Assembly (NCBI GenBank): GCA_963767125.1
Contig: CAVYDB010000002.1
Span: 71,991 to 135,990, forward strand
Reading direction: 5' to 3'
DNA: 64,000 nt
DNA from: an uncultured Bacteroidota bacterium
Lineage (GTDB): Bacteria; Bacteroidota; Bacteroidia; JABEUT01
Under the pieces are notes generated by a model that ran no database searches, had not been told where the DNA came from, and saw only the letters and a list, made by a program, of their open reading frames with translations. This document shows, piece after piece, positions 1 through 23,865 of the stretch; position 1 is the stretch's first letter, and each line of letters starts with the position of its first letter. The translations under genes were made by a program, and so were the position numbers.

Positions 1-29
1 AAAGAGTAGCAAGAGACCTTGCTAATGCA

Positions 30-1481: not shown

Positions 1482-1536
1482 TAGGTAGAATTATTGACCT
1501 TATCGGCTTTTTAAAAAAATAAATAAAATAACAAAT

Positions 1537-1779
1537 ATGGAACAAAATCATAGATTCTCTTTAGAGAAATACAAAGGAATTACTAGTCGCTTTACTTGCC
1601 CTAATTGCGGGCATAAAAATATTTTCAGTCGCTATATCGATAATGATACTGGAGCCTATCTACATGAGAAAGTAGGTAGATGTAATCGTGAAGATAAATG
1701 TGGTTATCATTATAAGCCGAACGAGTTTTTTAAGGACACTCCGACATATATATTAAGCGAATCAACTGGAAATTATATA
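1537..1779 (+). pseudogene. 5' fragment of a Zn-ribbon/Toprim (primase-like) gene, interrupted by an IS
   Basis: Contains 'CPNCGHKN...GRCNREDKCGYHYKP', the Cys4 zinc-ribbon N-terminus typical of Bacteroidota mobile-element primase-like proteins. The ORF runs into the IS left inverted repeat and stops at 1809 inside the IS. Confidence 0.6.
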
Positions 1780-1841
1780 GTGTACCCCAAAATTAGGGCA
1801 GGTTGTTAAGGTGGAAAAATAAACCTTAAATTTACCTGACT

Positions 1842-2132
1842 ATGGAAAGAAAACCAAGACGTAATTTCAGTTCAGACTTCAAGGCTAAAGTAGTCATTGA
1901 AGCATTAAAAGAGCGGAGCAGTATGGAAGAACTTGCCCGCAAGTATGAACTACATCCTAATCAAATCAGTACCTGGAAGAAAGACTTTTTAGAAAAAGCG
2001 GCTACTGTTTTTGAGGACAGCTCAAGCAGGAAAGAAGAGCGACAACAAGAGCAGGCGGATATAGAAAAACTATATGCCCAGATAGGAAGGTTGAAGATGG
2101 ATAATGAATGGCTCAAAAAAAAATTACAGTAA
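1842..2132 (+). CDS. IS3-family transposase OrfA (HTH)
   Basis: 96 aa beginning 'RRNFSSDFKAKVVIEALKE', followed by a leucine-zipper-like C-terminus. This is the typical IS3 OrfA. Confidence 0.85.
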   Translation: MERKPRRNFSSDFKAKVVIEALKERSSMEELARKYELHPNQISTWKKDFLEKAATVFEDSSSRKEERQQEQADIEKLYAQIGRLKMDNEWLKKKLQ

Positions 2133-2959
2133 AACCATTACCGGAGCGCAGAGCAATGATAGAGAAAGATAAGGATATAAGTATACGCCATCAGTGTGAA
2201 CTTGCCTGTATTCACCGTAGCGGGTTGTATTATAAACCTATGCAGGAGAGCGAAGATAATCTCCACCTGATGCGATTGGTGGATGAGAAGTATCTGCAAA
2301 CCCCTTTTTACGGAGTGCGCAAACTCACATACTGGCTCAGAACCGAAGGGCATCGTGTTAATGCAAAACGCGTCAAACGACTAATGGACCTAATGGGCTG
2401 GCAAACCCTCTATCGCAAGCCCAATACCAGCAAGCCAGGTAAAAGACAGTTAATATATGAATACTTGCTTAAAGGCTTGAAAACCACCCACAGCAATCAG
2501 GCATGGGCTGTGGATATAACCTATATTCCCATGCGTAGAGGGTTTATGTATTTATGTGCCATTATAGACCTTCATACCCGGTATGTGGTGAACTGGAGCA
2601 TTAGCAATACCATGACCTCCCAATGGTGCTGTCAGGTACTTAACGAAGCCATAGAACAATATGGCAAACCGGAAATTATCAACTCTGACCAAGGTAGTCA
2701 GTTTACTTCTGATGAATGGTTTAAAGCCTGTGAGGGAATAAAAATAAGCATGGATGGTAAAGGTAGAGCGTTAGATAATATATTTATAGAGCGCTTATGG
2801 AAGTCCGTCAAATATGAATGTGTATACTTACATGCCTTTGAAGATGGCGTAGAACTCTATAACGGAATACATCGGTATTTTACCTTTTACAACCATGAAC
2901 GAATCCATCAATCTCTGGACTATAAAACACCCGCATCCATGTACCCACAGGCAGCTTAA
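2108..2959 (+). CDS. IS3-family transposase OrfB (DDE integrase core), probably made as an OrfAB fusion by -1 frameshifting
   Basis: DDE residues sit in 'WAVDITY', 'INSDQGSQF' and 'ERLWKSVKYE'. The frame is -1 relative to orfA and overlaps it across the A-run. Confidence 0.85.
   Translation: MAQKKITVKPLPERRAMIEKDKDISIRHQCELACIHRSGLYYKPMQESEDNLHLMRLVDEKYLQTPFYGVRKLTYWLRTEGHRVNAKRVKRLMDLMGWQTLYRKPNTSKPGKRQLIYEYLLKGLKTTHSNQAWAVDITYIPMRRGFMYLCAIIDLHTRYVVNWSISNTMTSQWCCQVLNEAIEQYGKPEIINSDQGSQFTSDEWFKACEGIKISMDGKGRALDNIFIERLWKSVKYECVYLHAFEDGVELYNGIHRYFTFYNHERIHQSLDYKTPASMYPQAA
2115..2123 (+). promoter_or_regulatory. Programmed -1 ribosomal frameshift slippery run (A9) of the IS3 transposase
   Basis: A run of 9 A residues lies in the orfA/orfB overlap, with orfB in the -1 frame. 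This is standard IS3-family architecture. Confidence 0.6.
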
Positions 2960-3077
2960 AAGTTATTAACAAATTAACACTTATCAACAAAGAAAAAAGA
3001 AGCAAAAAAGAAAATGACAACAACAATAACAAAACAACTTAACTTTGACTTACTCCTGTCCTAACATTGGGGTACAC

Positions 3078-3833
3078 TATAATTATTCAACTACTAAGCA
3101 ACCTAAAAAAGATAATTGTTTCTCCTATATCTTATTTGATTATGTACGATGGAGCATTGATCCGTCGGATAAGAATTACTTCTTAGAATATCTATCAAGC
3201 CTATTCGACAATAAATCGGTTGATACTATTAAGAATCGATATTATATCGGTGCCTCAAATCATTGGAATGGAGCAACAATATTTTGGCAAATCAACTTTG
3301 AAAGTGAAGTAAAGACCGGAAGAATTATGTTGTACAATTCTAAAACTGGTAAAAGAGTAAAGGAACCATTTAATCATATTACATGGTATCATGTAATAGA
3401 AGAAATTGAATGTCCCTATGGCAGTAATAGAAAGTTTTTATTGGAGCAATGTTTCTTTGGTGAACATCTTCTGAAATTAGAACCGAATAAACCTGTTGCA
3501 ATAGTAGAGAGTGAAAAAACAGCAGTAATAGCAAGTGTCTATTATCCCGAATATATATGGTTAAGTGCAGGAGGCATTAATGGGCTTACCCTCGAAAAAT
3601 GCCAGGTATTGAAGGGTAGGGATGTTTGTTTGTATCCAGATTTAAACGCTTACAATAAATGGAATGAAAAGATGAAAACCATATCATATTTAGGAAATTT
3701 TACAATTTCTGACTTATTGGAAAAGATAGCCAACCCAGAGGAAAAAGGAAATGGGCTGGATCTGGCGGATTACCTCACTAAATATCCCCTTGAACTATTT
3801 ATTCGAGATGCCGAGAATGCCAATAATTTCTAA
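3078..3833 (+). pseudogene. 3' fragment of the Zn-ribbon/Toprim (primase-like) gene
   Basis: Contains 'GATIFWQINFESEVKTGRIMLYN', 'KPVAIVESEKTAVIAS' and 'WLSAGGINGL', a Toprim-like acidic core. It continues the domain order begun at 1537. The TTG start at 3045 in the ORF track lies inside the IS. Confidence 0.55.
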
Positions 3834-3919
3834 AATAATTTAGAAAACCGTTGCGTATTATGTTTTATAGGAGGGACTTTGCCCTATGAAATAATAATAA
3901 AAATCATCTGAAATAAATT

Positions 3920-5203
3920 ATGGCACATTTAAAATTTATCGTTAGAACGCAGAAAAATGTACTAAACCAAGACGGAAGTTCAATTATCTTTTTAAGATAT
4001 ACGCACCGCAGTAAAGTGACTTTATTCTCCGCAGAAAGAACAATAAACCCAGATTTCTGGGACAAAAAAAGAGGTTGTGTTAAACAATCTTATAAAGGTT
4101 TCAGCGCATTTAATATGTATTTAGATAAGTTTCGACAGGGGATAGAAGATTATGTTCACAAAGCATTATCTGATGAGATTGAACCTACTATTGAATACAT
4201 TAGAAGTAAGGTCAGATTAAAAATTGAAAAGAAAGAGGCAAAAGCTTCTCAACTTGGTTTCTTCTCATTTGTTGAGCAGTATATTGAAGGTGCAAAGGTT
4301 AACAAGAAAAAGTCTACCATAACTGCCTATAAAAACTCCCTAAGACATCTGCGAGAATTTAAAGTTTATAATAGAGAGCCGTTAACTTTTGATTCTTTCG
4401 GTTTGGATTTTTACGACAAGTTTAACTATTACATTATTGAAGTTAAACATTGCGGAAATAACGCCTTTGGAAAGCAAATAAAGACGTTAAAAACCTTCTT
4501 AAATGAAGCGATTGAAAGAGGATATGAGGTAAACCCTTCTTTCCGAAGTAAAAAATTCAAGATAGTAACGGAAGATGTTGAGAATATTTACCTGACGGAA
4601 GCGGAATTAGGAAAATTACTTGCTCTTGACCTTTCTCACGATTTACGTTTAGAAAAAATACGGGATTTATTTATTGTAGGCTGTTACACAGGATTAAGGT
4701 TTTCGGATTTTTCAGAAATTAAACCTGAAAATATAAGGAATGAATGTATCTACATCAGAACTATTAAAACACAGCAAAATGTTGTAATTCCCTTTCACCC
4801 TTATGTCCGTCAAATAATGGCAAAATACGAAGGTAAATACCCTAATCATTTACCTCCTTCCATAAGTAACCAAAAGATGAATAACTACTTGAAAGAAATT
4901 GGAAAACTGGCAAAACTAGATGAAAATATACTTCTTTCAAGAACTAAAGGAAGTAGGTTAGTTGAGAATATCTACAAAAAATACGAATTAATAACTACCC
5001 ACACAGCAAGAAGGTCATTTGCTACTAACCTTTTTAAACAAGGCTTTCCAAGTTTGAATATTATGAAAATCACAGGACATAAAACGGAAAAATCGTTTAT
5101 GCGCTATGTTAAGGTCAAGGAAGAAGAGGCTGCACTAATGTTAAAGAAGCATTGGGATTCATATTACCAAAATACACCTTCACTCCTATCGAAAATTGCC
5201 TAG
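3920..5203 (+). CDS. Tyrosine site-specific recombinase/integrase (Bacteroidota type with an N-terminal arm-binding domain)
   Basis: 427 aa with catalytic-region motifs 'GLRFSD' (Arg), 'HTARRSFATN' (HxxR) and 'GHKTEKSFMRYV' (His/Tyr). Confidence 0.9.
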   Translation: MAHLKFIVRTQKNVLNQDGSSIIFLRYTHRSKVTLFSAERTINPDFWDKKRGCVKQSYKGFSAFNMYLDKFRQGIEDYVHKALSDEIEPTIEYIRSKVRLKIEKKEAKASQLGFFSFVEQYIEGAKVNKKKSTITAYKNSLRHLREFKVYNREPLTFDSFGLDFYDKFNYYIIEVKHCGNNAFGKQIKTLKTFLNEAIERGYEVNPSFRSKKFKIVTEDVENIYLTEAELGKLLALDLSHDLRLEKIRDLFIVGCYTGLRFSDFSEIKPENIRNECIYIRTIKTQQNVVIPFHPYVRQIMAKYEGKYPNHLPPSISNQKMNNYLKEIGKLAKLDENILLSRTKGSRLVENIYKKYELITTHTARRSFATNLFKQGFPSLNIMKITGHKTEKSFMRYVKVKEEEAALMLKKHWDSYYQNTPSLLSKIA

Positions 5204-5304
5204 TTGAATTAACTTATCCGGAACGCATTTGACAGATTTTGATAAACAAGTTGAAGATTCATTCGTAAAATCAAAGAAAACGCTTAAAATCCATATTGGA
5301 ATAT

Positions 5305-5334
5305 GAAATTAGGGAAATCCAAGCCAGTATTAAG
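5305..5334. repeat. att-like imperfect direct repeat, copy A
   Basis: GAAATTAGGGAAATCCAAGCCAGTATTAAG resembles 15256-15294. Shared blocks are GAAATT, GGG, AAA, CCAAG and CAGTATTAAG. It lies about 100 bp past the integrase stop. Confidence 0.3.
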
Positions 5335-5421
5335 ATATATTTGCCATAGAATTCAAAAACTAAAAAACAAAGACATAGAAAAAACATAAAATAATTACAT
5401 ATCAGCGTTATCTGATTCTTT

Positions 5422-5532
5422 GTAGTTAAAAACTGCGAAAATTTCAACAGAACAAAGGATAGGATGAACGCTCACGCAAAGCGTGGGCTTTATCTTGTCT
5501 GTTCTGTAGGTGCTTCGCAGTACCTTAACTAC
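5422..5532 (+). other. Long imperfect hairpin (~111 nt); candidate structured RNA, leader or ssDNA origin element
   Basis: Nested stems: 5422-5429/5525-5532, 5433-5439/5514-5520, 5448-5454/5500-5506, then a near-continuous helix 5458-5477/5481-5499 closed by an AAA loop. Confidence 0.5.
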
Positions 5533-5605
5533 GGCAGGTAAATGTCCCACGCTGATTTTTTATATAAACACCTATTTGGGACATTGGGGATAAAGACCAA
5601 CACCC

Positions 5606-6097
5606 ATGAAAAAATTGCTGTTATTATTTGTTGCTTCATTTTTATTTTCAACTTCGCAGTCACAAACTCCCAAATCTCTGTTAGGACAGTTGAAAATAGT
5701 TCCTCCCAATTCTAATTTGGATTCTATCCCTGAATCTAAAAAAGTTAATGACAGAGAATGTCTCGCGAATAATCTCGCGGAAGATACATCAATTTATACA
5801 AAGGTTAAACAAAATCCTAAGTTTCCCGGTGACCTTTACTTATGGCTTTCAAATCATATTGAATACCCAGAACAAGCAAAGGATTCCAATTTACAGGGTA
5901 TTGTTTATGCATCTTTTGTTGTTGAAATGAATGGTTCAGTTTCACGGAGTAAAATTGTGAAGGGTATAAATAAATTGATAGATGAAGAGGTTTTAGAGGT
6001 CATTTCTGAAATGCCAAAGTGGGAGCCAGGGAGAAATAATAAAGGGCAAATTGTGAGAGTTCAATTCACTCTACCAATTCACTTTTCGAATAGATAG
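5606..6097 (+). CDS. Secreted TonB C-terminal-domain protein
   Basis: Signal peptide 'MKKLLLLFVASFLFSTSQS'. The C-terminus 'PKFPGD...YPEQAKDSNLQGIVYASFVVEMNGSV...PKWEPG...V' matches the TonB_C layout. Confidence 0.65.
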   Translation: MKKLLLLFVASFLFSTSQSQTPKSLLGQLKIVPPNSNLDSIPESKKVNDRECLANNLAEDTSIYTKVKQNPKFPGDLYLWLSNHIEYPEQAKDSNLQGIVYASFVVEMNGSVSRSKIVKGINKLIDEEVLEVISEMPKWEPGRNNKGQIVRVQFTLPIHFSNR

Positions 6098-6255
6098 ATA
6101 TTTAAATGACCAGATTCAATACACCCGAGCAGGATAACTGAACAAAGAGGAACAATCACCTTCATCTTTCCCTGCAATAAATTTTCTTGATTTTATTGGT
6201 TGGACATTCCAAATTAAGTAGGACTGTTGCCCCAATTATTAAAACAAATAAAATC

Positions 6256-6669
6256 ATGGAAACAAAAATCAACGCCAGTTTCATTAAGAGAGCATCCTAT
6301 GCTACCCTTAGTCAACTGTGCAAACAAATGAATGTTGAATTTGAAAATCAATCTAAAGAAAAATTGCAAGAACTTCTTATTACTCAACTTAAACCTGAAG
6401 AGAAGCAAGTGATAAGCCCCGAACTAAAAGAAGCTGCTAAGGGAAATTCGACTGTAAAGAAGGTAGTAAAAAAGATAATTCATACTAAACCCACACCAAT
6501 TAAAAAAGCTGATAATGCCAAAAAGGCATCTGGGGTTAAGGAAGAAACTAAGTCGAGTAAAATCCTTGCTCTTTATTTAAAAGGCAAAAAAGTAAGTGAG
6601 ATAAGTACAGCATTAAATGCCCACCCTTCCTTCTGTTATACTGTAATAACTAAGCATAAAAAGAAATAA
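6256..6669 (+). CDS. Lys-rich putative DNA-binding protein (SAP/Rho-N-like N-terminus, HTH-like C-terminus)
   Basis: I take the start at ATG 6256 rather than the TTG at 6187. 'ATLSQLCKQMNVEFENQSKEKLQELLITQL' resembles a helix-extended-helix motif. The centre is Lys-rich, and 'KKVSEISTALNAHPSFCYTVI' is HTH-like. A terminator follows. Confidence 0.4.
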   Translation: METKINASFIKRASYATLSQLCKQMNVEFENQSKEKLQELLITQLKPEEKQVISPELKEAAKGNSTVKKVVKKIIHTKPTPIKKADNAKKASGVKEETKSSKILALYLKGKKVSEISTALNAHPSFCYTVITKHKKK

Positions 6670-6683
6670 CATTAAGAAGACAG

Positions 6684-6710
6684 AATGCCACTCTTTTGGG
6701 TGGCATTTTT
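6684..6710 (+). terminator. Rho-independent terminator
   Basis: Stem AATGCCAC (6684-6691) pairs with GTGGCATT (6700-6707), followed by a T-run. Confidence 0.65.
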
Positions 6711-6734
6711 GCATCTTAACAATAACTTAGACAT

Positions 6735-7158
6735 ATGCTTATACCTGTAAACAAAAAACGGAGGGAAGAACCTATTCAAAGGGCTCTAGATATATATTTT
6801 ATTTTAAGAGAAATATTGTACTCTAAACATAAATTCGACCAAGAAAAAGAACACTTCTATAGTATAATTCTCTCCTCGAATAAAAGGATAAAATGTATCG
6901 ATGAAGTTTCAATCGGTAGTAGCCGTTCAACAATTGTTCATCGGAGAGAAGTATTCCGATTTGCAATTCTAAAAGGAGCCCAGGCGATTATAGTAGCCCA
7001 TAATCATCCTTCAGGAAGTCTTGTCCCAAGTGAAGAAGATAAAAAAGACCATTAAGATTCTAGTTGAGGCTGGTAAAATTCTGAATATACCTATTCTTGA
7101 TAGTCTAATTATCTCTCCTAGGAATTATTACAGCTTCTTGGGAGATAATTCTCTATAA
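6735..7158 (+). pseudogene. radC: RadC-like JAMM protein (DUF2466), frameshifted
   Basis: 'VAHNHPSGSLVPSEEDK' is the JAMM HxHxxxxxxxxxxD-type motif. The frame breaks in the A6 run at 7041-7046. The next frame continues with the expected RadC C-terminus 'TIKILVEAGKILNIPILDSLIISPRNYYSF' to the stop at 7156-7158. Confidence 0.75.
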
Positions 7159-7248
7159 ACTTTAGACCTCATTTAGCTAATTTATTACGTATTATTGCAT
7201 ATTGTTTCTCCACGTATTTATATTATTTATCCCTTTAGTTTCTAATGC

Positions 7249-7911
7249 ATGACTGTCTACTTGAGTTCATTTTATCCATTATGTTCGACAAGGTCAGGGA
7301 AAAAAGCATCAAAGAACTTTAAATTTCCTCCATATATTGATGGTTCATGTAGACGGGAGCCTGATTTTGAGAAACAACATCCTTCTATTACAGGACTTTG
7401 TCGTCCACCTTTTGCAGCAAAACTCTGCAAGGGAGATATAGTAGTTTACACAACAAACAAATTAGGTATTGGTGCACGTAAAGTAGTGGCGGTGTTAGAA
7501 GTTATACATGTTATTCAAAAATCCAATGAAAACCCTAAATTTTCAACACATAAAAAAGCAGCTAAATGGTACTTTGAGAAAAAATATAAATTACCAAATA
7601 ATTTAATGGTAAAAGATAATATCCCTCATCCATTAGTTGAAACAAGCCGGAAAGGTAGGTGGGTAGATTGGGTCGGAGGAAAAAGTCTAAAAGAATGGGA
7701 TAAACATTATTTGGAACGCTCAATAAATACTAATGTTGCGATTTGTAAAGTGCTCTGCAAAGAATTAAATAATCCTATTGAGTTGACAGAAAATGAAATG
7801 TTGAGAATATTTGGGAGAAGACCTGGCACACGAAACCCATCAAAGGTTCAACCTAAAGAATGGGATGATTTTAGGAAGTGGTTATTCAAAAATAGATACA
7901 ATATTAAATAA
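7249..7911 (+). CDS. Hypothetical protein, family not recognised
   Basis: 220-aa ORF with a Cys/Arg-rich N-terminus 'PPYIDGSCRREPDFE...GLCRPPFAAKLCKGDIVVYTT' and a basic, Trp-rich C-terminal half. No family motif that I can name with confidence. Confidence 0.5.
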   Translation: MTVYLSSFYPLCSTRSGKKASKNFKFPPYIDGSCRREPDFEKQHPSITGLCRPPFAAKLCKGDIVVYTTNKLGIGARKVVAVLEVIHVIQKSNENPKFSTHKKAAKWYFEKKYKLPNNLMVKDNIPHPLVETSRKGRWVDWVGGKSLKEWDKHYLERSINTNVAICKVLCKELNNPIELTENEMLRIFGRRPGTRNPSKVQPKEWDDFRKWLFKNRYNIK

Positions 7912-8090
7912 TAACTATAGTTTTTGTTGGGAAGAGGATTGGCAAGTTTGGAGTAATGGATGATAGTCCGAAATGATAGGCATTTTTGACCGTATGTTTG
8001 ACCGCACGCAGTATCTCCCTAATAAATCTTGCTATTTATGCCATATTTCGGAAGAGATACCTGTTCCAATTAGGACAATAGTAAAATTTC

Positions 8091-8098
8091 TACCTTTG
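8091..8098 (+). promoter_or_regulatory. Bacteroidota -7 promoter box (TAnnTTTG)
   Basis: TACCTTTG lies 37 nt upstream of ATG 8135. Confidence 0.4.
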
Positions 8099-8134
8099 CG
8101 GAGGCACTGCGTATCTTCCAATTTAGAGATTATT

Positions 8135-8602
8135 ATGAGGACATTCTTGGAGCAACCTGAAGCGACATTTTACCATGTAACGACAATTGAAAAGTGGGTC
8201 ATAATTCAAGCCAATGGTTTAATACCGAATAATGGACGACTTTTTGTTTCAAGAGTTGGCGAACTGCCAATTCTTCTCGCAATAGCTTTTGAACAATTAC
8301 CTGAAATTTATTCAACCGAAGAAATTATCTTTTTGAAACTACCTCAATCTAAGAATAATTTTATGATTGATGAACTCAAACCTGACAATCAGGCGAGAGT
8401 TGAATGGACTCAACCATTTCAGAATATTATTCTTCGTCAACACATTGCTATTCAAAATATAGAATTAATGATGAGATTGCAATTAGGGCAAGAACCACAG
8501 AGAACATTCACTATTAACTACTTGACCCGCATCGCAAATGCAGGAAGGGAAAATTATCAAAATCACAGTATCACTGCAAGAGCATTACAATTAATTTATT
8601 AA
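8135..8602 (+). CDS. Hypothetical protein with an ADP-ribosyltransferase-fold-like opening motif (speculative)
   Basis: I take the start at ATG 8135; the ORF track extends to 7973, but that stretch contains the promoter box. 'FYHVTTIEKWVIIQANGLIPNNGRLFVSRV' is followed by the strand 'EEIIFLKLP'. Confidence 0.5.
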   Translation: MRTFLEQPEATFYHVTTIEKWVIIQANGLIPNNGRLFVSRVGELPILLAIAFEQLPEIYSTEEIIFLKLPQSKNNFMIDELKPDNQARVEWTQPFQNIILRQHIAIQNIELMMRLQLGQEPQRTFTINYLTRIANAGRENYQNHSITARALQLIY

Positions 8603-8620
8603 AACTGAACCACCTAAAGT

Positions 8621-8851
8621 ATGGCAACAAAAATGATTACTGAAACTGTTCAAGTAACAATAAGTTCCACGGAAGAAGAAATTAGACAGGTAGTATTTGG
8701 GAGTTCGCTTACTCCAATAGGTAAATTGTATGAAAGATACAACAAATGTATAGAATCATATAAGGGTAATGGTTACACGATTGTTAGTGAAGATTCAGAA
8801 AAGCTTTCGTTTATTGCAGAGAAGAAATATCTGGAGGAGGAAAAGAATTAG
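8621..8851 (+). CDS. Small hypothetical protein (76 aa), likely co-transcribed with 8135-8602
   Basis: Starts 18 nt after the upstream stop on the same strand. The C-terminus is acidic. No recognisable family. Confidence 0.45.
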   Translation: MATKMITETVQVTISSTEEEIRQVVFGSSLTPIGKLYERYNKCIESYKGNGYTIVSEDSEKLSFIAEKKYLEEEKN

Positions 8852-8921
8852 GTTAACCATAGAGGATAGGTACAATTTTGTGGATAATAGAATTGCCTAG
8901 TTGGAAATGCTATTATTATTC

Positions 8922-11636
8922 TTAAGAGATTTTATCTCGTAATTCAGCGATGAATCCTTTTCTTTGTAAATATTCTAAGTAGAATGCTTTTAAAGGTAAT
9001 TCTTCAGTTTTAGTAATTTTCTCTAACCATTCCATTGGTGCTTTTTTCATTTCATCGGGAATATGATTGGATATTTTAATTGCAACCGACCTAGAGATTC
9101 CCCTTGAAATCATTATTAATACATCAATTTTACGAGTACCTAACTCTAACATTGTTGGTAAATTTAAAGTACGATGATATAGCTTTTTTTGCTCCTCAGT
9201 CATTAGAGAGGCAAGAATATCAGTATAGACCTTAAAATATTTTACTAAAATAAAAGTGACAAGAATTGAATTGTAGTTGATGACATGGTTAATAATATTA
9301 TTGACCATCCTTACTTCACCTTTAAGCTTCATTTCACTCGGGTACTCTTCACGATAGTATTGAATATCTTCTTGTATTAAATCAGCTAAAGATAAACTTT
9401 GCAACCAAACAAATCCGTAATAAGCCATTTGGCGTGCACCAGCACTAGTACTTCTTATTGAAGCCTCCTTCCACATTGCAAAGATTCTATCTAGTTTAAG
9501 GATTAAATTCTCAAATTGATAGTAAAAACTTGCTTGTTGTATAGATAATGCTTCAGCATTTTTTCTAGTCATAAATACTTTCCCGAAATTGTCATTTCCT
9601 AGCTCCTGATCAATGATTACCCATTCTTCAAAGCCGTCAGATTTTATTGTCTCATATAGTTTATTCTGGAGAATGGGGTCTATACTAGGATTTAAGCGTA
9701 CTACATCCTTAGGTATAGTAAATTTTCCTAGTTTTTCTGTAATTATATCCGATATTATATTTACCTTGTTTTTATCTAACCCTCTTCCTTCTAGATAACT
9801 AATAAAATTTGATGGTTCTTCAATATACTTCTGTTTTATATAATTACCTGTGTATTCATCACCCTTATGCTTTAAAAATCGAGGTTCCCTATTTAGTACA
9901 TCAACAATAGCTTGGGTATCTTGTTTCATTACTTCATCGGTAATTAGTTTGACTTCCTTAGTATATTGTTCAGTATTATAATATGAATCTGCCCAATTAT
10001 CTGAGGGACTAACCTCAAGGCAAAAAACTGTCCCAATCATTCTCGCACCTATCCTTCCTGCTCTTCCAATCAAATTACTAAATTCAAAATGACTTAATTC
10101 AGCTCCATCTTTCTTTGGTGAAATGATAAACATTCGAGGAGCTGGAAGATTAACCCCTTGTAATAGCGTACTAGTACAAAAAAGATACTTTATATAACCT
10201 TTTTCAAATAAATATTCAACTTCATTTCTTACAAAATCTGGGAGTTTACCATGATGAAACGCTACATTATACTCAAGGCAATATATTAAGTAATAGTCTT
10301 TATGTATCTCTTCTTTTAACAAGTCGATAAACCTCTTAATAGCAGGGTGTATATCTTTTGGTTTATCACCATATCTCCTTAATTCCCTAACAAATTCAAT
10401 TGCATAACTTACACAATAATTTGCCTTAGGGGAATAAATAAGATTCCCATCTGGCTTCCCAAACCTTCTAACAATCGGAGCTAGATAGAATTTATTTGCA
10501 ACGTAATTATTAACCTTTAAATCCTCGCTTATCTCTATAGAGTGAGTCTTCTTGTCATTTAAAAATAGATTGACTTTTATAGTGTCATTATTAATATATT
10601 TAACAGCAAGCCGTAATTGATATACAGGCGGCAAATAAGTATGTACCTCTTCCGCAGATAAAGACATCAATTTTGTATATAACTCTTTACCATTATTGAT
10701 AAAAGGTCCAGCGAAAAGAATCTTTGCATTTATCCATATTCGTGGCATTTCTGAAAGAATACTAATTAGGAGAACTGCCCTGTTATCGTTTGTTTCGACA
10801 TTTTGAATCTCATCTACAAAAATGAAGTTCGGGTAAAATTTTTTATTCCAACCTTGCTGTAGTAACTTCAAACATCTTTCTGGAGTTACACAGTAAATTT
10901 CCTTTAGATTATTCTTATTATTTTGAGATGTCTCTATAGCTTCCTGCGAATCTTCAACAAATGCAGTCTTTATTAACACATCTTTGTCTAAGATTTTCTT
11001 GAAATCATCACTTACTTGGCTAATTAACGCTCTTGTTGGAACTATATAAATTACTTTGAATTCGGAGTTAGTTGAAAATAGGCTACCAATAAATCGTTGT
11101 ATAAAAAATGATTTTCCAGCAGAAGTCGGGGCTGAAATTGCAATTCTATTATGTATTTGGAGATTATCCCATAATTCTCTTTGGAAATCAGTTACGAAAT
11201 ATGTTGTATTACCAGTTTCTATTTTATTAATATTACGCTTAGTACCCACTTCGAAATCCAATACAATTCCAAAGCTTTTCCGAAACTTTCTTATATTAGT
11301 ATCCGCGTTTTGTTCCTCATAGACTGTTTGAAGATGGTTCGCAGCAGCAAGATTCCCTGTTCTTGATAAAATAGTATATGATAACTGCGTTTTTGATTCA
11401 TCTTTGTTATATTGAAGAAACAGCAATTTTGCAAAAGAAGCTGCGATAAATTGATGCTTTTCCTCTGAGCTATTAGCAAGTATTGATGCTAACCAACCAG
11501 CTTGACGTAATTTCTCATCATCAATTGGTAAATACCCATTTACTTTGTAATCAGAACAAAACTGGTTTACCGCTAATGTTTTAATAGCGTCTAATAATAC
11601 TGGATGATTTCTTACTGAATCAAATGTGTTGGACAT
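8922..11636 (-). CDS. hamB: Hachiman HamB, superfamily-2 DEAD/DEAH-type helicase
   Basis: 904 aa. Helicase motifs: I 'APTSAGKS', Ia 'IVPTRALISQV', II 'FVDEIQNV', V 'STLLQGVNLPA' and VI 'LIGRAGRIG'. The start overlaps the stop of the upstream DUF1837-like gene by 25 nt. Confidence 0.7.
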   Translation of the reverse strand: MSNTFDSVRNHPVLLDAIKTLAVNQFCSDYKVNGYLPIDDEKLRQAGWLASILANSSEEKHQFIAASFAKLLFLQYNKDESKTQLSYTILSRTGNLAAANHLQTVYEEQNADTNIRKFRKSFGIVLDFEVGTKRNINKIETGNTTYFVTDFQRELWDNLQIHNRIAISAPTSAGKSFFIQRFIGSLFSTNSEFKVIYIVPTRALISQVSDDFKKILDKDVLIKTAFVEDSQEAIETSQNNKNNLKEIYCVTPERCLKLLQQGWNKKFYPNFIFVDEIQNVETNDNRAVLLISILSEMPRIWINAKILFAGPFINNGKELYTKLMSLSAEEVHTYLPPVYQLRLAVKYINNDTIKVNLFLNDKKTHSIEISEDLKVNNYVANKFYLAPIVRRFGKPDGNLIYSPKANYCVSYAIEFVRELRRYGDKPKDIHPAIKRFIDLLKEEIHKDYYLIYCLEYNVAFHHGKLPDFVRNEVEYLFEKGYIKYLFCTSTLLQGVNLPAPRMFIISPKKDGAELSHFEFSNLIGRAGRIGARMIGTVFCLEVSPSDNWADSYYNTEQYTKEVKLITDEVMKQDTQAIVDVLNREPRFLKHKGDEYTGNYIKQKYIEEPSNFISYLEGRGLDKNKVNIISDIITEKLGKFTIPKDVVRLNPSIDPILQNKLYETIKSDGFEEWVIIDQELGNDNFGKVFMTRKNAEALSIQQASFYYQFENLILKLDRIFAMWKEASIRSTSAGARQMAYYGFVWLQSLSLADLIQEDIQYYREEYPSEMKLKGEVRMVNNIINHVINYNSILVTFILVKYFKVYTDILASLMTEEQKKLYHRTLNLPTMLELGTRKIDVLIMISRGISRSVAIKISNHIPDEMKKAPMEWLEKITKTEELPLKAFYLEYLQRKGFIAELRDKIS

Positions 11637-12595
11637 TTAACTTCATATTTAGATTGGACAGGCTTAGGTCTCCATTCGACACTATGAAAAGTCTTGTAGA
11701 GTAAATGTTTAAAATCATCAACGCTTTTCATCGGAATAAAGAAAAAATCGAGATAAACCTCTGAAACCTCCCTAAATTCCTTGCACAGTTCTTTAACATT
11801 AGAAGCGTAAGAGTTTAAGTTCTGATTTATTATTTCTTTTATCTTGTTTTCTCCGTCCTGATTATTTAATGCGTTAATTCCATCAATATTTTCGTCATCA
11901 TAAATTATTAAAACTGGATGTACCTTAACCCTAGCTTTATGCTCTTGTGTAGAGGGAATGAAACACTGGTATATGTAGTCAAGTTCTTCCTTACTTAGAT
12001 CAATACGAATATTTTTAGTCGCTACAAATAATTCGTAATTAAGCGCGCTATATTCATATTCTTTGTAGAACTTGTCCAATGAGACAAAGGCATCTTTTAG
12101 AGCATCTTTGAAAGAAGACCAGGTCTTTGCTTCACCAATTAATATTGCTGGTAATCCCTTGTAATCTCCGCAAAATAAACCGTCACCACCTTTTATTTGG
12201 TCGTTAGGATTTGTGGGGAGTTTAAAAATAACCATTGGGACTTTTAAAACCGCTTCGGTAAGTAGGTAAAGAACTAATTCTCCATACTTACCATCGTATG
12301 TAGGATTCTTATTACCGAAGTATTGTAGAGCATAAATAAATGGTTCGAGCTTTGCCTTCTTGATTCTTTCAATCTCCTTGTCATTCAAAACATATTTTTG
12401 AATTGAAGCAGCAATAAATTGGGCAAAACTGTTGGTATCATATTTAGTTCCAGTAAATTGAATACTATAAGTTCGAATAATTAGCTTTCCTTCCTCAATT
12501 ATAGTATGCTCGGTAAGATGTTCAGCCACCCATCCGCCATCTACAGTAATAAATTTTTCCCAATCTATTTTCATTGTTTTCATTAAGGAGAACAT
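11612..12595 (-). CDS. hamA: Hachiman HamA (DUF1837-like, PD-(D/E)xK nuclease motif)
   Basis: 327 aa with 'GGDGLFCGDYKGLPAILIGEAKTW', a D...ExK-type motif. Its size, its position immediately upstream of the helicase and the translational coupling all fit the HamA/HamB operon layout. Confidence 0.6.
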   Translation of the reverse strand: MFSLMKTMKIDWEKFITVDGGWVAEHLTEHTIIEEGKLIIRTYSIQFTGTKYDTNSFAQFIAASIQKYVLNDKEIERIKKAKLEPFIYALQYFGNKNPTYDGKYGELVLYLLTEAVLKVPMVIFKLPTNPNDQIKGGDGLFCGDYKGLPAILIGEAKTWSSFKDALKDAFVSLDKFYKEYEYSALNYELFVATKNIRIDLSKEELDYIYQCFIPSTQEHKARVKVHPVLIIYDDENIDGINALNNQDGENKIKEIINQNLNSYASNVKELCKEFREVSEVYLDFFFIPMKSVDDFKHLLYKTFHSVEWRPKPVQSKYEVKCPTHLIQ

Positions 12596-12659
12596 TAAAT
12601 TTCAAGTATTGCTCTCTAATATTGATTTACTATAAACAGAATAATTAGTGAATTCGCCC

Positions 12660-12667
12660 CAAAAATA
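12660..12667 (-). promoter_or_regulatory. Bacteroidota -7 box for hamAB (TAnnTTTG on the minus strand)
   Basis: The plus strand reads CAAAAATA, which is TATTTTTG on the minus strand. It lies about 65 nt upstream of the hamA start. Confidence 0.35.
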
Positions 12668-12707
12668 GCATTTTTAGTAGGATACTAACAAAATTGACAA
12701 TTGTTTA

Positions 12708-12715
12708 TACATTTG
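12708..12715 (+). promoter_or_regulatory. Bacteroidota -7 box for the DUF262/DUF1524 gene
   Basis: TACATTTG lies 39 nt upstream of ATG 12754. It is part of the 15-mer TGTTTATACATTTGC, which recurs at 15352-15366. Confidence 0.4.
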
Positions 12716-12753
12716 CCTACTTTCTTATAGTAATATATAATAAAAAATGAAGC

Positions 12754-14589
12754 ATGAACAAACAACTGATAAATAAAATTGATGCCAATGATACAAACAT
12801 CAATTTGCTATTGAAAGACCAGAAGTTCTTTATTGATTATTTTCAGCGTGAATACCGTTGGGCAGAGAAACATATTAAGCAGCTTGTTGAAGATTTAACA
12901 ACTACATTTTTAAAATCTTATAAAGCAGGTGATAAGCGTTCGGAAATTGCTAACTATCAAAATTATTATTTGGGTCCAATAGTATTCAGTATTAATCCAG
13001 AGAATAATAAAAAATCTATCATTGATGGTCAGCAACGGATTACATCCATTACTTTGGTACTTATATACCTAAATCATTTACAAGCAAATAATCCTAAGAA
13101 GGTATCTATTAGTGAATTGATATTCTCAGAAAAGTTTGATGAGAAATCTTTCAATATGTCTGATGAACCTAGGGAAGAATGTCTAACGGCATTGTTTGAA
13201 AATGGAGAATATGAATTGCAAGAGAAGGATGAGGAAACTGTTAAGAATATGGTGGAACGGTATGAGGATATTGGAAATTCGTTCCCCGAAGAAATTGATA
13301 CTATTGCTTTACCCTATTTCATAGACTGGTTTATTCAAAATGTTGTTGTTGTAACAATTACAGCCTATTCAGATGAAAATGCTTATACAATTTTTGAAAC
13401 CATGAATGACCGTGGGTTGAATCTCACTTCAACTGAAATGCTCAAGGGTTACGTACTTTCGAAGATTAAAGATAAAGTAAAAAGAAACGAAATAAATGAA
13501 CTTTGGAAATCCGAAATCAAGAAACTTCATCAGTATGGTGAAACAGTTGACCAAACTTTCTTTCAAGCATGGTTCCGAGGTAAATACGCTAAAACTATTC
13601 GTCCCGGTAAAGTTGGTTCCGAAAATAAAGATTTTGAATTAATAGGTTCCCGTTTTCATAGTTGGTTTAGAGATAACCATGAATCCCTATTCAAGCTCAA
13701 AAAGTCAGATGACTTCTATGATTTCTTCAAAAACCAATTCCCGTTTTATGTTAAATGGTATATGAAGTCCATGGATTTTCAAGTAATTTATAATCCTGAT
13801 GCACCGCATCTTTACTATATTCATCAATGGGGAATAGCTGAATCATTACAAGAACCACTTTTATTAGCTCCTATAAATTATGGGGATAATAATAGTGAAA
13901 TAAATAGCAAAATGGATTTTGTTGCAAGGTATATTGAAACATTCACCGTTAGAAGGGGAATAAGTTTTAGAAAATTTGGTCAAACTGCTATTAAATATAC
14001 GATGTTTAATCTAATAAAGCTAATAAGAGATAACGATTTAGAAACACTGGGCAATAATCTTTCAAATGAAATAGTAAGTATTGATGAGAACTGGGATAAA
14101 GTTTATTATTTCAGATTGCATGGGATGAACCGAAAGTTTGTTAAACATTTACTTTGTCGTATTTCAAGCTATCTAGATAATTTGGTTGGTAAAGGCACTA
14201 ATTATGTAACTTATCATCATCCTAATGGACGACAATTTGAGATTGAACATTTATGGGCAGATAAATTTAAAGAACATAAGGATGAGATTGACCAGGAAAC
14301 TGAATTTCAGGAATGGCGGAATGCTATAGGTGCATTAATACTTCTTCCCCAAGGGACAAATCAATCTTTTAATAGTGATAAATATGAGGATAAGCTAGAG
14401 CATTATTTAAAAGAAAATACCTATGCACAAACTTTGCATCCAGCATTTTACAAGAAAAATCCCAATTTTTTGAATTCAAAAGAAATTCAAAGCTTGGAGT
14501 TCATTTCGCACCCTCATATGAAAACCGCAGATATTGAAGAAAGGCTTTATTTAGTTCAACGTATATGTGAACAAATATGGTCATTCTAA
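12754..14589 (+). CDS. GmrSD-like type IV restriction endonuclease (DUF262 + DUF1524)
   Basis: 611 aa. N-terminal DUF262/ParB-like motifs 'DYFQREYRW' and 'IDGQQRITS'. C-terminal His-Me/HNH-like DUF1524 motifs 'FEIEHLWA' and 'NAIGALILLPQGTNQSFN'. Confidence 0.75.
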   Translation: MNKQLINKIDANDTNINLLLKDQKFFIDYFQREYRWAEKHIKQLVEDLTTTFLKSYKAGDKRSEIANYQNYYLGPIVFSINPENNKKSIIDGQQRITSITLVLIYLNHLQANNPKKVSISELIFSEKFDEKSFNMSDEPREECLTALFENGEYELQEKDEETVKNMVERYEDIGNSFPEEIDTIALPYFIDWFIQNVVVVTITAYSDENAYTIFETMNDRGLNLTSTEMLKGYVLSKIKDKVKRNEINELWKSEIKKLHQYGETVDQTFFQAWFRGKYAKTIRPGKVGSENKDFELIGSRFHSWFRDNHESLFKLKKSDDFYDFFKNQFPFYVKWYMKSMDFQVIYNPDAPHLYYIHQWGIAESLQEPLLLAPINYGDNNSEINSKMDFVARYIETFTVRRGISFRKFGQTAIKYTMFNLIKLIRDNDLETLGNNLSNEIVSIDENWDKVYYFRLHGMNRKFVKHLLCRISSYLDNLVGKGTNYVTYHHPNGRQFEIEHLWADKFKEHKDEIDQETEFQEWRNAIGALILLPQGTNQSFNSDKYEDKLEHYLKENTYAQTLHPAFYKKNPNFLNSKEIQSLEFISHPHMKTADIEERLYLVQRICEQIWSF

Positions 14590-14671
14590 TACTTTGCTTC
14601 GTAAAATGTAGATTTTTATGAGAAAAATAAAATAACCCCGAGAAAATTTGGAAAATTCAATATTTATGTGT

Positions 14672-14679
14672 TAATTTTG
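14672..14679 (+). promoter_or_regulatory. Bacteroidota -7 box (TAATTTTG)
   Basis: Its 3' end (14679) lies 22 nt upstream of ATG 14701. Confidence 0.35.
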
Positions 14680-14700
14680 TAGTTACTAAACCCATTTACT

Positions 14701-15195
14701 ATGGAAATATATACTTATGACTTTGATGTGTATAATAGGCATGTCACGCTTTATTTCGACAACGGACAACAATTGAAGGTGTTCCTAAATCAGGACTCGG
14801 GTAAGATTTATATGCGCCCTAAAATAGGCAGCACGTTTGGTGTATATCATAAGGGAATATACTTAGGGTACTCTGAAAAGGGACAACAAATAATGATTCA
14901 TAATCACAGCACCCCAGGAAGGGCTGTAATAACGACTTGGGGAGACTTTTTACAGAATCAATCATCATTTCTTGATGATAAGGTATGTTCAAATGCTCCA
15001 ATTGAAAGACTTAAAATTGCTTTAGCAAACGTTTTACAACGGGAGCCATACGATTTACTTAATAACTCCTGCCAAACCTTTGTAAACGAAACCTGTACAA
15101 ATGAACGTAAAAACGATGATACAGGAAAAGTTCTTCTTGGTATCGCAGCCACAGGTTTGATTATAGCAGGGCTAAATGCTTTATTTGGAGAATGA
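14701..15195 (+). CDS. LRAT/PLAAT-like NlpC/P60-superfamily protein with a C-terminal membrane anchor
   Basis: His box 'YHKGIYLGY...IMIHNHS' and Cys box 'NSCQTFVNE' (compare NCEHF in LRAT/H-RAS-like suppressors). A hydrophobic helix 'VLLGIAATGLIIAGLNALF' sits at the extreme C-terminus. Confidence 0.6.
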   Translation: MEIYTYDFDVYNRHVTLYFDNGQQLKVFLNQDSGKIYMRPKIGSTFGVYHKGIYLGYSEKGQQIMIHNHSTPGRAVITTWGDFLQNQSSFLDDKVCSNAPIERLKIALANVLQREPYDLLNNSCQTFVNETCTNERKNDDTGKVLLGIAATGLIIAGLNALFGE

Positions 15196-15255
15196 CTGAA
15201 TCAAACCCCTAATCTTTGTGATTTATTGGTATTTAACCACTAAACAATACTCCAA

Positions 15256-15294
15256 GGAAATTTGGGGAAACCAAGTGATTCAAACAGTATTAAG
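15256..15294. repeat. att-like imperfect direct repeat, copy B
   Basis: GGAAATTTGGGGAAACCAAGTGATTCAAACAGTATTAAG shares ordered blocks with 5305-5334. It lies about 60 bp past the last cargo gene. Confidence 0.3.
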
Positions 15295-15357
15295 TGCAAC
15301 TTGATACTCATTAGAATCTTTTTATTGTATTCAGTCCCGAATTCAGTCAAATGTTTA

Positions 15358-15365
15358 TACATTTG
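15358..15365 (+). promoter_or_regulatory. Orphan promoter-like -7 box (TACATTTG) within the repeated 15-mer
   Basis: The same 15-mer occurs at 12702-12716. No annotated plus-strand ORF lies downstream, and a terminator follows at 15488. Confidence 0.3.
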
Positions 15366-15487
15366 CATAGGTACACCTAGTATTTTATTCTAAAGAGAAA
15401 TCCTTTTGAGCTGCTCTATAAGGGTGCATATGAGTTTACACGTATGTTTAAAACCTTCCAGGTCGGACAACATTTAATAACTTCAAG

Positions 15488-15517
15488 GCACTTAATATTA
15501 AGTGCTCTTTTTGTTTT
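15488..15517 (+). terminator. Rho-independent terminator (plus-strand orientation)
   Basis: Perfect palindrome GCACTTAATATTAAGTGC (15488-15505) followed by TCTTTTTGTTTT. Confidence 0.6.
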
Positions 15518-15520
15518 CTA

Positions 15521-16639: not shown

Positions 16640-16879
16640 AAACACGCTCTCGCCATATCTTAGCAATTATAGTCATTTTTTTGTACTTCATAGCCACTAT
16701 CTTGCAATAACCATTTAAGCTGCACATAATGCTTTTCCCCCTTTTCATCACTACCGCCCTTCCCTTTCCCCCCATTCAACTATCAATTACCCCATCTTAA
16801 CGAATAAGAAGAAATAATGCCATTCCCCGGGCTAACTTCGTATAGATAAAAGATAGAAATGTAGTTAAATACACACATT

Positions 16880-18547: not shown

Positions 18548-18900
18548 GGACTATAGTTCAGGCTGCCTATAATCAATAGTTTATAACTTTTTAGTCGCAT
18601 TTCAATCTGTAAATCTATAGCTTATCCCAAAAAACAGGTATTAAATTTGAATTGTAAACTTTACATTATATAATAGGAGTGTGACTTCTTACAGTCTAAA
18701 ATGGCTTGTAACTATAGGTAGTTATCAACATGGGGGGCATTTTGCATTCTGTATAATTTATAAAAGTGTAAAACTAAACGTTGTTTTTTCGAGGCAATTT
18801 AATCTATGGGGGATAAGTATAAAGCCGTCTTTTATCCAAGAATGTCGATACTTTCTTCCTGAAATATTTTTATTTTTGACCTGTCATTTAATAAAGGCTA

Positions 18901-19719: not shown

Positions 19720-19734
19720 TGGAAAAAAGGAATA

Positions 19735-22777: not shown

Positions 22778-22802
22778 ATATAATCTCTTTTATGTTTGTC
22801 TA

Positions 22803-23832: not shown

Positions 23833-23865
23833 AACAGTCTTTTGACGCCTCTAAGGTAGCGAAGT

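Follow-up and report, generated by a model that had tools for sequence, protein, structure and literature searches.

The window analyzed here is a stretch of 64,000 nucleotides (nt) from an uncultured Bacteroidota bacterium (GenBank assembly GCA_963767125.1, contig CAVYDB010000002.1, forward strand 71,991 to 135,990). Between a RadC remnant and a Hachiman operon, it carries two small co-oriented genes, termed gene A (155 amino acids, AA) and, 18 nt downstream, gene C (76 AA). Protein A is predicted to have an ADP-ribosyltransferase (ART) fold, and its family is absent from all curated libraries searched; no paper describing the family was found. With a probability of about 0.5, we consider it to be a new ART-fold family forming the constant enzymatic component of a modular defense cassette, of which the window would hold a reduced form with A and C. 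The general modular-cassette model ranked highest among the competing models. An earlier interpretation of the letters alone, called the sequence-only reading below, had suggested an ART-like enzyme in a dedicated toxin-antitoxin (TA) or DarTG-like pair.

A rare gene family with a predicted ADP-ribosyltransferase fold

Gene A is a real gene under purifying selection: the pairwise ratio of non-synonymous to synonymous substitution rates (dN/dS) against eight homologs was 0.05-0.11 at dS > 1. A word-indexed search of 5.8 billion proteins returned 48 relatives of ~155 AA with ≥ 49% identity, none of them annotated, and an exhaustive profile search of 1.84 billion cluster representatives (cut-off E ≤ 1e-3) gave 53 clusters at 50% identity. 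Scanning one genome per species (185,579 GTDB species) yielded five loci, all of them in Bacteroidota (Bacteroidales, Cloacibacterium, Tenacibaculum, Ferruginibacter and an unclassified Bacteroidetes bacterium), and an additional family member was found in Psychroserpens by protein search. No homolog of gene A was present in 50,697 INPHARED phage records, 72,556 PLSDB plasmids and 2.9 million IMG/VR contigs; gene C and the 162-AA partner described below were likewise without a match in INPHARED phages and PLSDB plasmids. The family is real, rare and so far restricted to Bacteroidota. The sequence-only reading had been unable to place either protein in a family, and the same was found for both with Pfam, NCBIfam, PADLOC and PHROGs, in which neither protein gave a significant hit.

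The structure of protein A was predicted with AlphaFold2 using an alignment of 40 sequences (predicted local distance difference test, pLDDT, 93.3; predicted template modeling score, pTM, 0.89). The model has the topology β1-α-β2-α-α-β3-α-β4-α-β5-β6, followed by two helices. In a Foldseek search against the PDB, Tpt1/KptA structures ranked first (E = 2e-4, probability 1.0; 8tg3, 9ldi, 8tg4, 8tfi), followed by DarT1 with NAD+, MbcT, cholera toxin, PltA, ParT, diphtheria toxin and PARP14. The top 12 hits (Tpt1, DarT1, MbcT) were all ART-fold proteins, as were most of the next 30. The hits in BFVD were phage proteins with the annotations DarT and RNA 2'-phosphotransferase, plus many small uncharacterized phage proteins. 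On the profile level, the family was compared using hhalign with an alignment of E. coli KptA and three crystallized Tpt1 proteins (alignment A6). This gave a probability of 63%, with FYH[VI]T...GL...FVS of the family aligned to LYHGT...GL...VHLS of Tpt1; with the Tpt1 C-lobe alone, the probability was 82% (E = 1e-5, residues 8-110). Sub-threshold Pfam matches were found among 43 family representatives to DUF7002 (six), DarT (three) and PTS_2-RNA (one). The only PDB sequence-profile match of the family, Crov588 (E = 0.078), is a repeat protein and was rejected as spurious. Since the independent structure-level and profile-level evidence agrees, protein A is predicted to have the ART fold of the Tpt1/DarT kind, and this part of the sequence-only reading has held up. 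Protein A comprises little more than an ART domain and is homologous to DarT as well as to the C-terminal, NAD+-binding lobe of Tpt1/KptA. Its conserved core spans about residues 8-118; the C-terminal helices (122-151) are clade-specific.

Residue conservation was counted over the same 43 representatives, which reach down to ~20% identity. The most conserved positions are Y13 (40/43), H14 (42/43), G28 (41/43), Q54 (37/43), D84 (42/43), E90 (36 E and 3 D) and T92 (34/43), and position 96 at the start of the fifth strand of the model is always Q or H. The strand-1 motif [YF]-H-x-T aligns to YHGT of Tpt1, and D84, E90 and T92 lie in the loop and helix before position 96. Mapped by strand order, the conserved positions would correspond to the NAD+-binding strand 1, the ADP-ribosylating toxin turn-turn (ARTT) loop region and the start of strand 5 of ART proteins.

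Protein A shares with Tpt1/KptA (PF01885) the [FL]YH[GV]T strand, the helix ending in GL, the hVxS strand and a terminal h-x-x-x-h-E strand. In contrast to Tpt1/KptA, it has two extra C-terminal helices and lacks the N-terminal winged-helix RNA lobe; it aligns only to about residues 99-184 of KptA, and the Foldseek alignments cover ~110 columns of targets of 177-206 residues. The KptA residues R21, H22 and R69, invariant in alignment A6, sit in the missing lobe. Together with R125, these residues are what we take to be the catalytic Arg-His-Arg-Arg tetrad of Tpt1, which protein A does not have; the position facing R125 is a gap or R35, which is an arginine in 12/43 representatives. Furthermore, Tpt1/KptA is a housekeeping protein, whereas gene A is found in defense islands. 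The gathering score of PF01885 was not reached: the protein of the window gave no match, and of the 43 members a single one matched at E = 0.092. Protein A is not a Tpt1.

With DarT (PF14487), protein A has the ART fold in common: DarT1 with NAD+ (8baq) was at rank 5 of the Foldseek hits and a phage DarT at rank 3 in BFVD. DarT is also, like gene A, encoded by the first gene of short operons in defense contexts. Protein A differs from DarT in being ~50 residues shorter and its gene in having a variable partner. The gathering score of PF14487 was not reached, with weak matches for 3/43 members (best E = 0.0062) and none for the protein of the window. A DarG-like macrodomain gene adjoining gene A was found neither in the window nor in ~15 homologous contexts (homologous loci are numbered L001 and so on). 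The only macrodomain gene near gene A is that of L010/L015, ~1.7 kb upstream and beside another PARP-like ORF. Protein A is not a DarT in the sense of DarTG. As for the upstream region of L010 (1575-2883; the same in L015), which lies 0.9-2.2 kb before a fusion of A with a protein D, it holds the Macro-domain gene (E = 1e-44), a 119-AA open reading frame (ORF) resembling CBS domains by eye and a 138-AA ORF with a weak match to the PARP catalytic domain (E = 0.005); it is a second ADP-ribosylation module in the same island.

CmdTAC, ParST and MbcTA/RES-Xre resemble the gene A loci in having ART-fold effectors in small mobile operons, and MbcT and ParT are among the Foldseek matches. They have, however, no detectable sequence relationship to protein A, and their antitoxins are dedicated and conserved (with a chaperone in addition in CmdTAC), whereas gene A is without such an antitoxin.

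Changing partners, gene C and the 5' leader

About 15 distinct contexts of gene A were recovered, in which gene A almost invariably opens a short group of co-oriented genes. The distance from its stop codon to the next gene is -4 to +10 nt in seven loci (L001, L003, L004, L011, L020, L023, L036) and 18 nt in the window and L009. Gene A is followed by a gene for a 268-AA Ymh protein and then for a 77-AA or 309-AA protein (L001/L002; L023-L026), for the 162-AA protein D (L036, the closest relative of the window gene with 80% identity), for a 182-AA protein with two R-x4-H motifs (L003, L012), for a 198-AA protein (L004-L007) or for a DnaB_C-like ATPase (L027). In L011/L018, ORFs of 62 AA and 77 AA follow, and L008/L013/L022 as well as L021 have no co-oriented gene after A. 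A co-occurrence of genes A and C across genomes, which the sequence-only reading had named as a check of its model, was not borne out: no conserved pair was seen, and in a neighbor-joining tree of A the partner changes repeatedly within a clade of 72-89% identity. Protein D, which has no match in Pfam, NCBIfam and PADLOC, is encoded 5 nt apart from A as a separate gene in L036 (186-1153) and is fused to A in frame, giving 321 AA, in two independent assemblies (L010, 3823-4788; L015, 6001-6966). In the window, no remnant of the genes for Ymh or the 162-, 182- and 198-AA partners was found using tblastn. The loci suggest that gene A works with interchangeable downstream genes, and the fusion of A and D is the strongest sign of a physical partnership.

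The defense-island setting of gene A holds in the window and in most homologous loci. Neighbors of gene A include McrBC with a MORC-like ATPase, type I restriction-modification (R-M) systems, PLD nucleases, a PDC-M29 pair, nSTAND NTPases, integrases and resolvases, and further Vsr/Bse634I/methylase type II R-M and AbiJ, beside transfer (tra) genes of conjugative transposons (CTn). Gene A begins 127-165 nt after an integrase or resolvase gene in L001 and L008, and directly after CTn-like tra genes in L009. In L001/L002 (GCA_977068815.1, CDRUZD010000003.1, ~376-392 kb), two identical triplets of A, Ymh and C form direct repeats 5.5 kb apart, the first starting 127 nt downstream of the gene for a tyrosine integrase. 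Between the two copies lie a 310-AA gene, a DUF695 gene and a candidate defense pair, PDC-M29 A/B.

The 268-AA Ymh partner (AbiJ_NTD3 and Ymh HEPN) matches PD-Lambda-3_B of PADLOC over the full length (E = 1e-83) and TIGR02391, keeps the RNTTAH motif and starts 1 nt after A in L001/L002 and L023-L026. The Ymh proteins constitute one of the HEPN families (PMC3710099). PD-lambda-3 is a defense system experimentally selected in E. coli, consisting, according to the supplement, of a PD-(D/E)xK-like nuclease, an AbiJ_NTD3-Ymh protein and a WD40 protein (PMC9519451). The relatives mentioned carry the PD-Lambda-3_B homolog directly after gene A, hence they resemble this system; they differ from it in that an ART-fold gene instead of a nuclease gene comes first and a gene for the 77-AA protein C or a 309-AA protein instead of the WD40 gene comes third. 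Judged from the order of A and Ymh in these relatives compared to the order in E. coli, some Bacteroidota have gene A in first position of a PD-lambda-3-like arrangement, in place of the original gene. The window itself is without PD-Lambda-3_B (tblastn), and protein A gave no PADLOC match to PD-Lambda-3_A. Another analogy, confined to the loci with A and Ymh, is the type VII system HEPN-MNT, in which the gene of a small nucleotide-using transferase also lies directly upstream of a HEPN RNase gene; MNT, however, is a nucleotidyltransferase with Pol-beta fold and protein A an ART, and the window has no HEPN gene.

A Ymh gene was also found in another setting. On a Klebsiella michiganensis plasmid (L037; NZ_OP378644.1, 84261-89436), a PD-lambda-3B-like TIGR02391/Ymh gene is located 75 nt upstream of hamA-hamB in the same orientation, and the same Ymh protein was found with an identical score on several further plasmids of enterobacteria. 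Like this Ymh gene, the A-C pair of the window abuts Hachiman.

Two of the partner proteins were inspected for HEPN features. The 182-AA protein and a 169-AA protein encoded upstream of Ymh in L032 contain R-x4-H motifs and gave a BLASTP match that was local and weak (E = 0.006), and no HEPN profile was matched; they appear HEPN-like by motif only. The 169-AA gene was also considered as a distant gene A, which was rejected (hhalign probability 0.2%).

Searching with the sequence of gene C alone retrieved only gene C itself. The ORF after A in L009 is homologous to gene C (43% identity in the C-terminal 37 residues, E = 5e-11), and with a profile of three sequences the family comprised nine members of 74-82 AA. 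The eight members other than that of the window have 70-90% mutual identity and a dN/dS of 0.07-0.1, i.e. they are under purifying selection. The AlphaFold model of protein C (pLDDT 77, β-α-α-β-β) had no significant fold match in the PDB (best E = 0.67). Gene C stands last in several different arrangements: directly after A (window, L009), after A and Ymh (L001/L002), after Ymh without A (L031), after the 169-AA R-x4-H protein and Ymh (L032), and after a DUF262-HNH nuclease behind an EcoRI-like methylase (L033, 114-2542; L034, 124-2552). In this uncharacterized three-gene arrangement, the nuclease (GmrSD_N) is split into two ORFs in L034. Counted by distinct contexts, C follows A directly in only two (window, L009) and after an intervening Ymh in a third (L001), i.e. 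in ~3 of ~15, and more than ten other contexts of gene A are without C. As C is last in such different arrangements, it is promiscuous and not a specific partner of gene A. An ancestral A-C arrangement shared by the window and L009, for which the 18-nt gap in both might speak, was rejected: The intergenic sequences are unalignable, the C of the window may start 12 nt later, and the two loci are not sisters in the tree of A.

The start codon of gene A was assigned from its homologs. The mechanical ORF extends upstream to 7973, as does the public gene call P0001 (209 AA). All of the ~48 homologs have ~155 AA and start at the MxTFL equivalent of the ATG at 8135 (stop codon 8600-8602). Hence, 8135 is the real start and P0001 an over-extended annotation; the 54-residue N-terminal extension (7973-8134) has no counterpart in any homolog and contains a promoter-like box. 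With the start at 8135, this box (TACCTTTG, read directly from the sequence) lies in the 5' region and not within gene A. The Bacteroidota-type pattern TAnnTTTG has a background of 0.55 per kb per strand in the window, and ~3% of start codons would have one within 60 nt by chance. Because of this, the position of TACCTTTG 44 nt upstream of the ATG is suggestive of a promoter of gene A and not proof of one. Similar boxes at other distances were found in 6/16 homologous loci examined, and none within 120 nt in the remainder. For gene C, the alignment of homologs indicates that the second methionine (8633) may be the start. The box, both ORFs, the opening peptide of the 155-AA protein and the acidic tail of the 76-AA protein (KKYLEEEKN) were confirmed in the sequence as the sequence-only reading had described them.

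Directly 5' of the ATG, a leader of ~30 nt, ACGTTATATGCCATTTTAAAAGACGACA, is conserved in the close clade. It is common to L001 (7970-8000), L010, L011, L016, L023 and L027, and the sequence farther upstream is unrelated between the loci. Since the leader is kept while the upstream sequence is not, the mobile unit would essentially be the leader plus the ORF of gene A. The leader could be a translational or regulatory element, or could mark a recombination boundary. An integron-cassette reading of leader and ORF was dropped, since the next gene begins 1-10 nt after the stop codon of gene A, leaving no room for attC.

The island around the locus

Features of the region are listed in Table 1. 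The AT-rich island between a RadC remnant and Hachiman, which the sequence-only reading had described, was found again with Pfam, PADLOC and the GC profile. GC content is 31-34% over most of positions 1-15000 and 36-41% from 15001 to 24000, thus the low-GC stretch ends near 15000. An IS3-family element with 41% GC (2001-3000), compared to 33% around it, consists of an HTH_Tnp_1 ORF (1842-2132) and an rve ORF (2108-2959). Lying between the Zn_ribbon_16 ORF (1537-1809) and the DUF6371 ORF (3045-3833), it has probably interrupted a single gene of the integrative element. The gene hamB is convergent with gene C with 70 nt between the stop codons, and no intrinsic terminator was found between them. 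A tRNA gene at the island edge was not found in positions 1-30000. Pfam, NCBIfam, PADLOC and PHROGs contained no significant match for two island ORFs flanking the defense genes, 7249-7911 (220 AA) and 14701-15195 (164 AA); the 164-AA protein gave weak PPPDE/LRAT-type and Acb1 matches only (E = 0.02-0.4).

Table 1. Gene A, gene C and surrounding features, in positions of the window.
Feature	Position	Strand	Basis or remark
DUF3987 protein	30-1481	+	Pfam; integrative-element backbone
Zn_ribbon_16 and DUF6371 ORFs, split by IS3 element	1537-3833	+	Pfam
Tyrosine integrase	3920-5203	+	Pfam
TonB_C	5606-6097	+	Pfam
RadC JAB fragment	6735-7055	+	Pfam, E = 7e-22
Promoter-like box, Bacteroidota-type -7, TAnnTTTG (TACCTTTG)	8091-8098	+	44 nt before ATG of gene A
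5' leader of gene A, putative diverged copy of ACGTTATATGCCATTTTAAAAGACGACA-ATG	8104-8134	+	~20/31 positions match by eye, our own interpretation
Gene A, 155-AA stand-alone protein with predicted ART fold, related to the Tpt1/KptA NAD+ lobe and DarT	8135-8602	+	homologs, alignments, AlphaFold, Foldseek, hhalign, dN/dS
Gene C, 76-AA small protein, β-α-α-β-β, acidic tail	8621-8851	+	family, contexts, model, dN
Hachiman hamB	8922-11636	-	PADLOC, E = 4e-241
Hachiman hamA	11612-12595	-	PADLOC, E = 1e-101
GmrSD-type restriction enzyme (DUF262 and DUF1524)	12754-14589	+	Pfam, GmrSD_N E = 1e-33, GmrSD_C E = 2e-7

A proposed modular cassette and its alternatives

Protein A has a conserved putative NAD+ site, and its gene is located in defense and mobile contexts. 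For NAD+ use, target, direction of control and the role of C, we infer the following: Protein A would bind NAD+ through the conserved strand with Y13 and H14 and transfer ADP-ribose, the acceptor being a protein or, in a nucleic acid, a phosphate or base. Such a transfer would serve either as toxic output of a module of the abortive-infection type or as a step in joint action with the downstream effector. The role of protein C would be that of a small accessory without enzymatic activity, e.g. a neutralizer or an adaptor. Since gene A of the window is directly followed by a divergent C, the locus would best be read as a reduced A-C form of a cassette of the type A-HEPN-C and not as a dedicated TA pair.

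Several observations weigh against this interpretation. No curated profile reaches its threshold for any member of the gene A family tested. The TM-scores of the Foldseek hits are modest (0.4-0.5), because only ~110 of the 155 residues of protein A superpose. The assignment of D84, E90 and Q/H96 to the active site is based on strand order and not on a superposition in 3D; E110 does not vary within the close clade, but only 35/43 representatives of the wider family have E or D at this position, and the arginine equivalent to the catalytic R125 of Tpt1 (E. coli KptA numbering) is not conserved. The C of the window is an outlier with ~31% identity and a dN of 0.75-0.83 to all other members, compared to 0.13-0.27 among them. 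The A of the window, unlike its C, is no more diverged than other A proteins. This C may be decaying and have no role at all. Gene A is solitary in at least two lineages (L008/L013/L022; L021), which argues against a constitutively toxic enzyme. Finally, tight packing of unrelated single-gene systems in defense islands could mimic operons.

The pair favored by the sequence-only reading, a type II (DarTG-like) TA system with A as ART toxin and C as neutralizing protein antitoxin, is quite unlikely. To our knowledge, the characterized ART-fold proteins of TA or defense systems are all toxins (DarT, ParT, MbcT/RES, CmdT), and the ART fold of A counts in favor of this pair on that ground. CmdT is cited in PMC9519451. 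The small size of C, its acidic tail and its position 18 nt downstream fit an antitoxin as well, and the model was kept at low probability because the order A-C recurs once, with the same gap, in L009, the A of which is only 73% identical. However, apart from these two contexts, C is found near A only behind Ymh (L001); it follows Ymh-HEPN and DUF262-HNH genes where A is absent, and the closest relative of the window gene (L036) is followed by the 162-AA gene instead. In addition, A stands without any co-oriented neighbor in L008 and L021, the C of the window is a divergent outlier, the two A-C loci are not sister taxa in the tree of A, and a macrodomain partner was not found next to A. Toxin loss which leaves the antitoxin behind is the usual decay route of TA systems, and this would suit a reversed assignment of roles: A as enzymatic antitoxin or regulator of type VII-like systems (cf. 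MNT), which ADP-ribosylates and silences the downstream effector, the A-C locus of the window being what remains after loss of the toxin. Gene A is always first and translationally coupled in seven loci (gaps of -4 to +10 nt), its partners include effector-type proteins (the Ymh HEPN with intact RNTTAH, matching PD-Lambda-3_B, and the 182-AA protein with two R-x4-H motifs), and a solitary A is tolerated, as expected of an antitoxin and not of a toxin. We know of no ART-fold antitoxin, which counts against such a regulator, although operons with ART, Macro and HEPN genes have been recorded for another HEPN family (PMC3710099). Moreover, Ymh occurs without A, together with C in L031 and alone before Hachiman on enterobacterial (Klebsiella) plasmids, thus Ymh is tolerated without A. 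The window keeps a fully conserved A under purifying selection with neither an effector gene nor a remnant of one, and the partners termed D, F and C have no toxin signature. This makes an enzymatic antitoxin unlikely as well, even if it is the least unlikely of the alternatives.

The nearest structural and profile relatives of protein A, Tpt1/KptA, would fit an RNA-end modifier, which would use ADP-ribose to cap or process the phosphate termini produced by a neighboring metal-independent RNase, thereby either blocking repair by phage RNA-repair enzymes or mending host RNA. ARTs of the KptA type target phosphate groups and process the termini which metal-independent endoribonucleases produce (PMC9503650), and A is linked to a confirmed HEPN protein (Ymh) in two protein clusters; the 182-AA partner has R-x4-H without profile support. 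Lacking the RNA-binding lobe of Tpt1 and three of the four tetrad residues, with the fourth not conserved, and being without an RNase partner at many loci including the window, protein A is very unlikely to act in this way. Even less probable is that A and C are unrelated single genes packed in a defense hotspot, with A perhaps a non-catalytic pseudo-enzyme binding NAD+ or ADP-ribose and C a decaying ORF. Each of the two genes does have its own independent set of neighbors, no universally conserved acidic catalytic residue was mapped in 3D, and C is highly diverged in the window and without a fold match. Against mere packing, the downstream gene overlaps with gene A or begins 1-10 nt after it at many loci, the fusion of A and D indicates a physical cooperation of A with one downstream partner or more, and D84, E90, T92 and Q/H96 are kept in a family diverged to ~20% identity, which points to a functional site. 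The lowest rank was given to a role of A not in host defense but in counter-defense or otherwise to the benefit of integrative or conjugative elements, in which it would modify or sequester, e.g., NAD+-derived immune signals or host factors. The mobile contexts (L009 after tra genes; L001 and L008 after integrase or resolvase) and the frequency of small stand-alone Tpt1/DarT-like proteins in phage proteomes would agree with this, as would a weak Tad8 match of one family member (E = 0.017). This match is, however, single and sub-threshold, the phage, plasmid and IMG/VR collections contain no homolog of A, and the operon partners are defense effectors (PD-Lambda-3_B).

For the modular cassette, ART-fold effectors in defense are an already known and growing theme (DarT, CmdT, ParT, RES toxins). 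New here are the stand-alone NAD+ lobe, the swappable partner and the link to HEPN proteins of the PD-lambda-3B type; protein A, being the NAD+ lobe alone, is the most reduced Tpt1/DarT-like protein which we could place. A more far-reaching proposal is that HEPN and other effectors have NAD+-dependent partner enzymes of a new class, namely the A family. Protein A would be either the first ART-fold type VII antitoxin, silencing its cognate RNase by ADP-ribosylation, or a KptA-derived enzyme which adds ADP-ribose caps to the RNA ends generated by an RNase, preventing phage RNA-repair enzymes from resealing them. We regard this as rather doubtful. If true, the swappable downstream gene would define a plug-and-play defense cassette with A as the universal controller. 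The payoff from the window locus itself is modest, as the family is rare (~50 clusters, Bacteroidota only) and the copy here would be a reduced form without effector. If A controls or complements its partners, the family would represent a new logic in ADP-ribosylation-based immunity and would provide a biochemical handle on the uncharacterized HEPN proteins of the PD-lambda-3B type.

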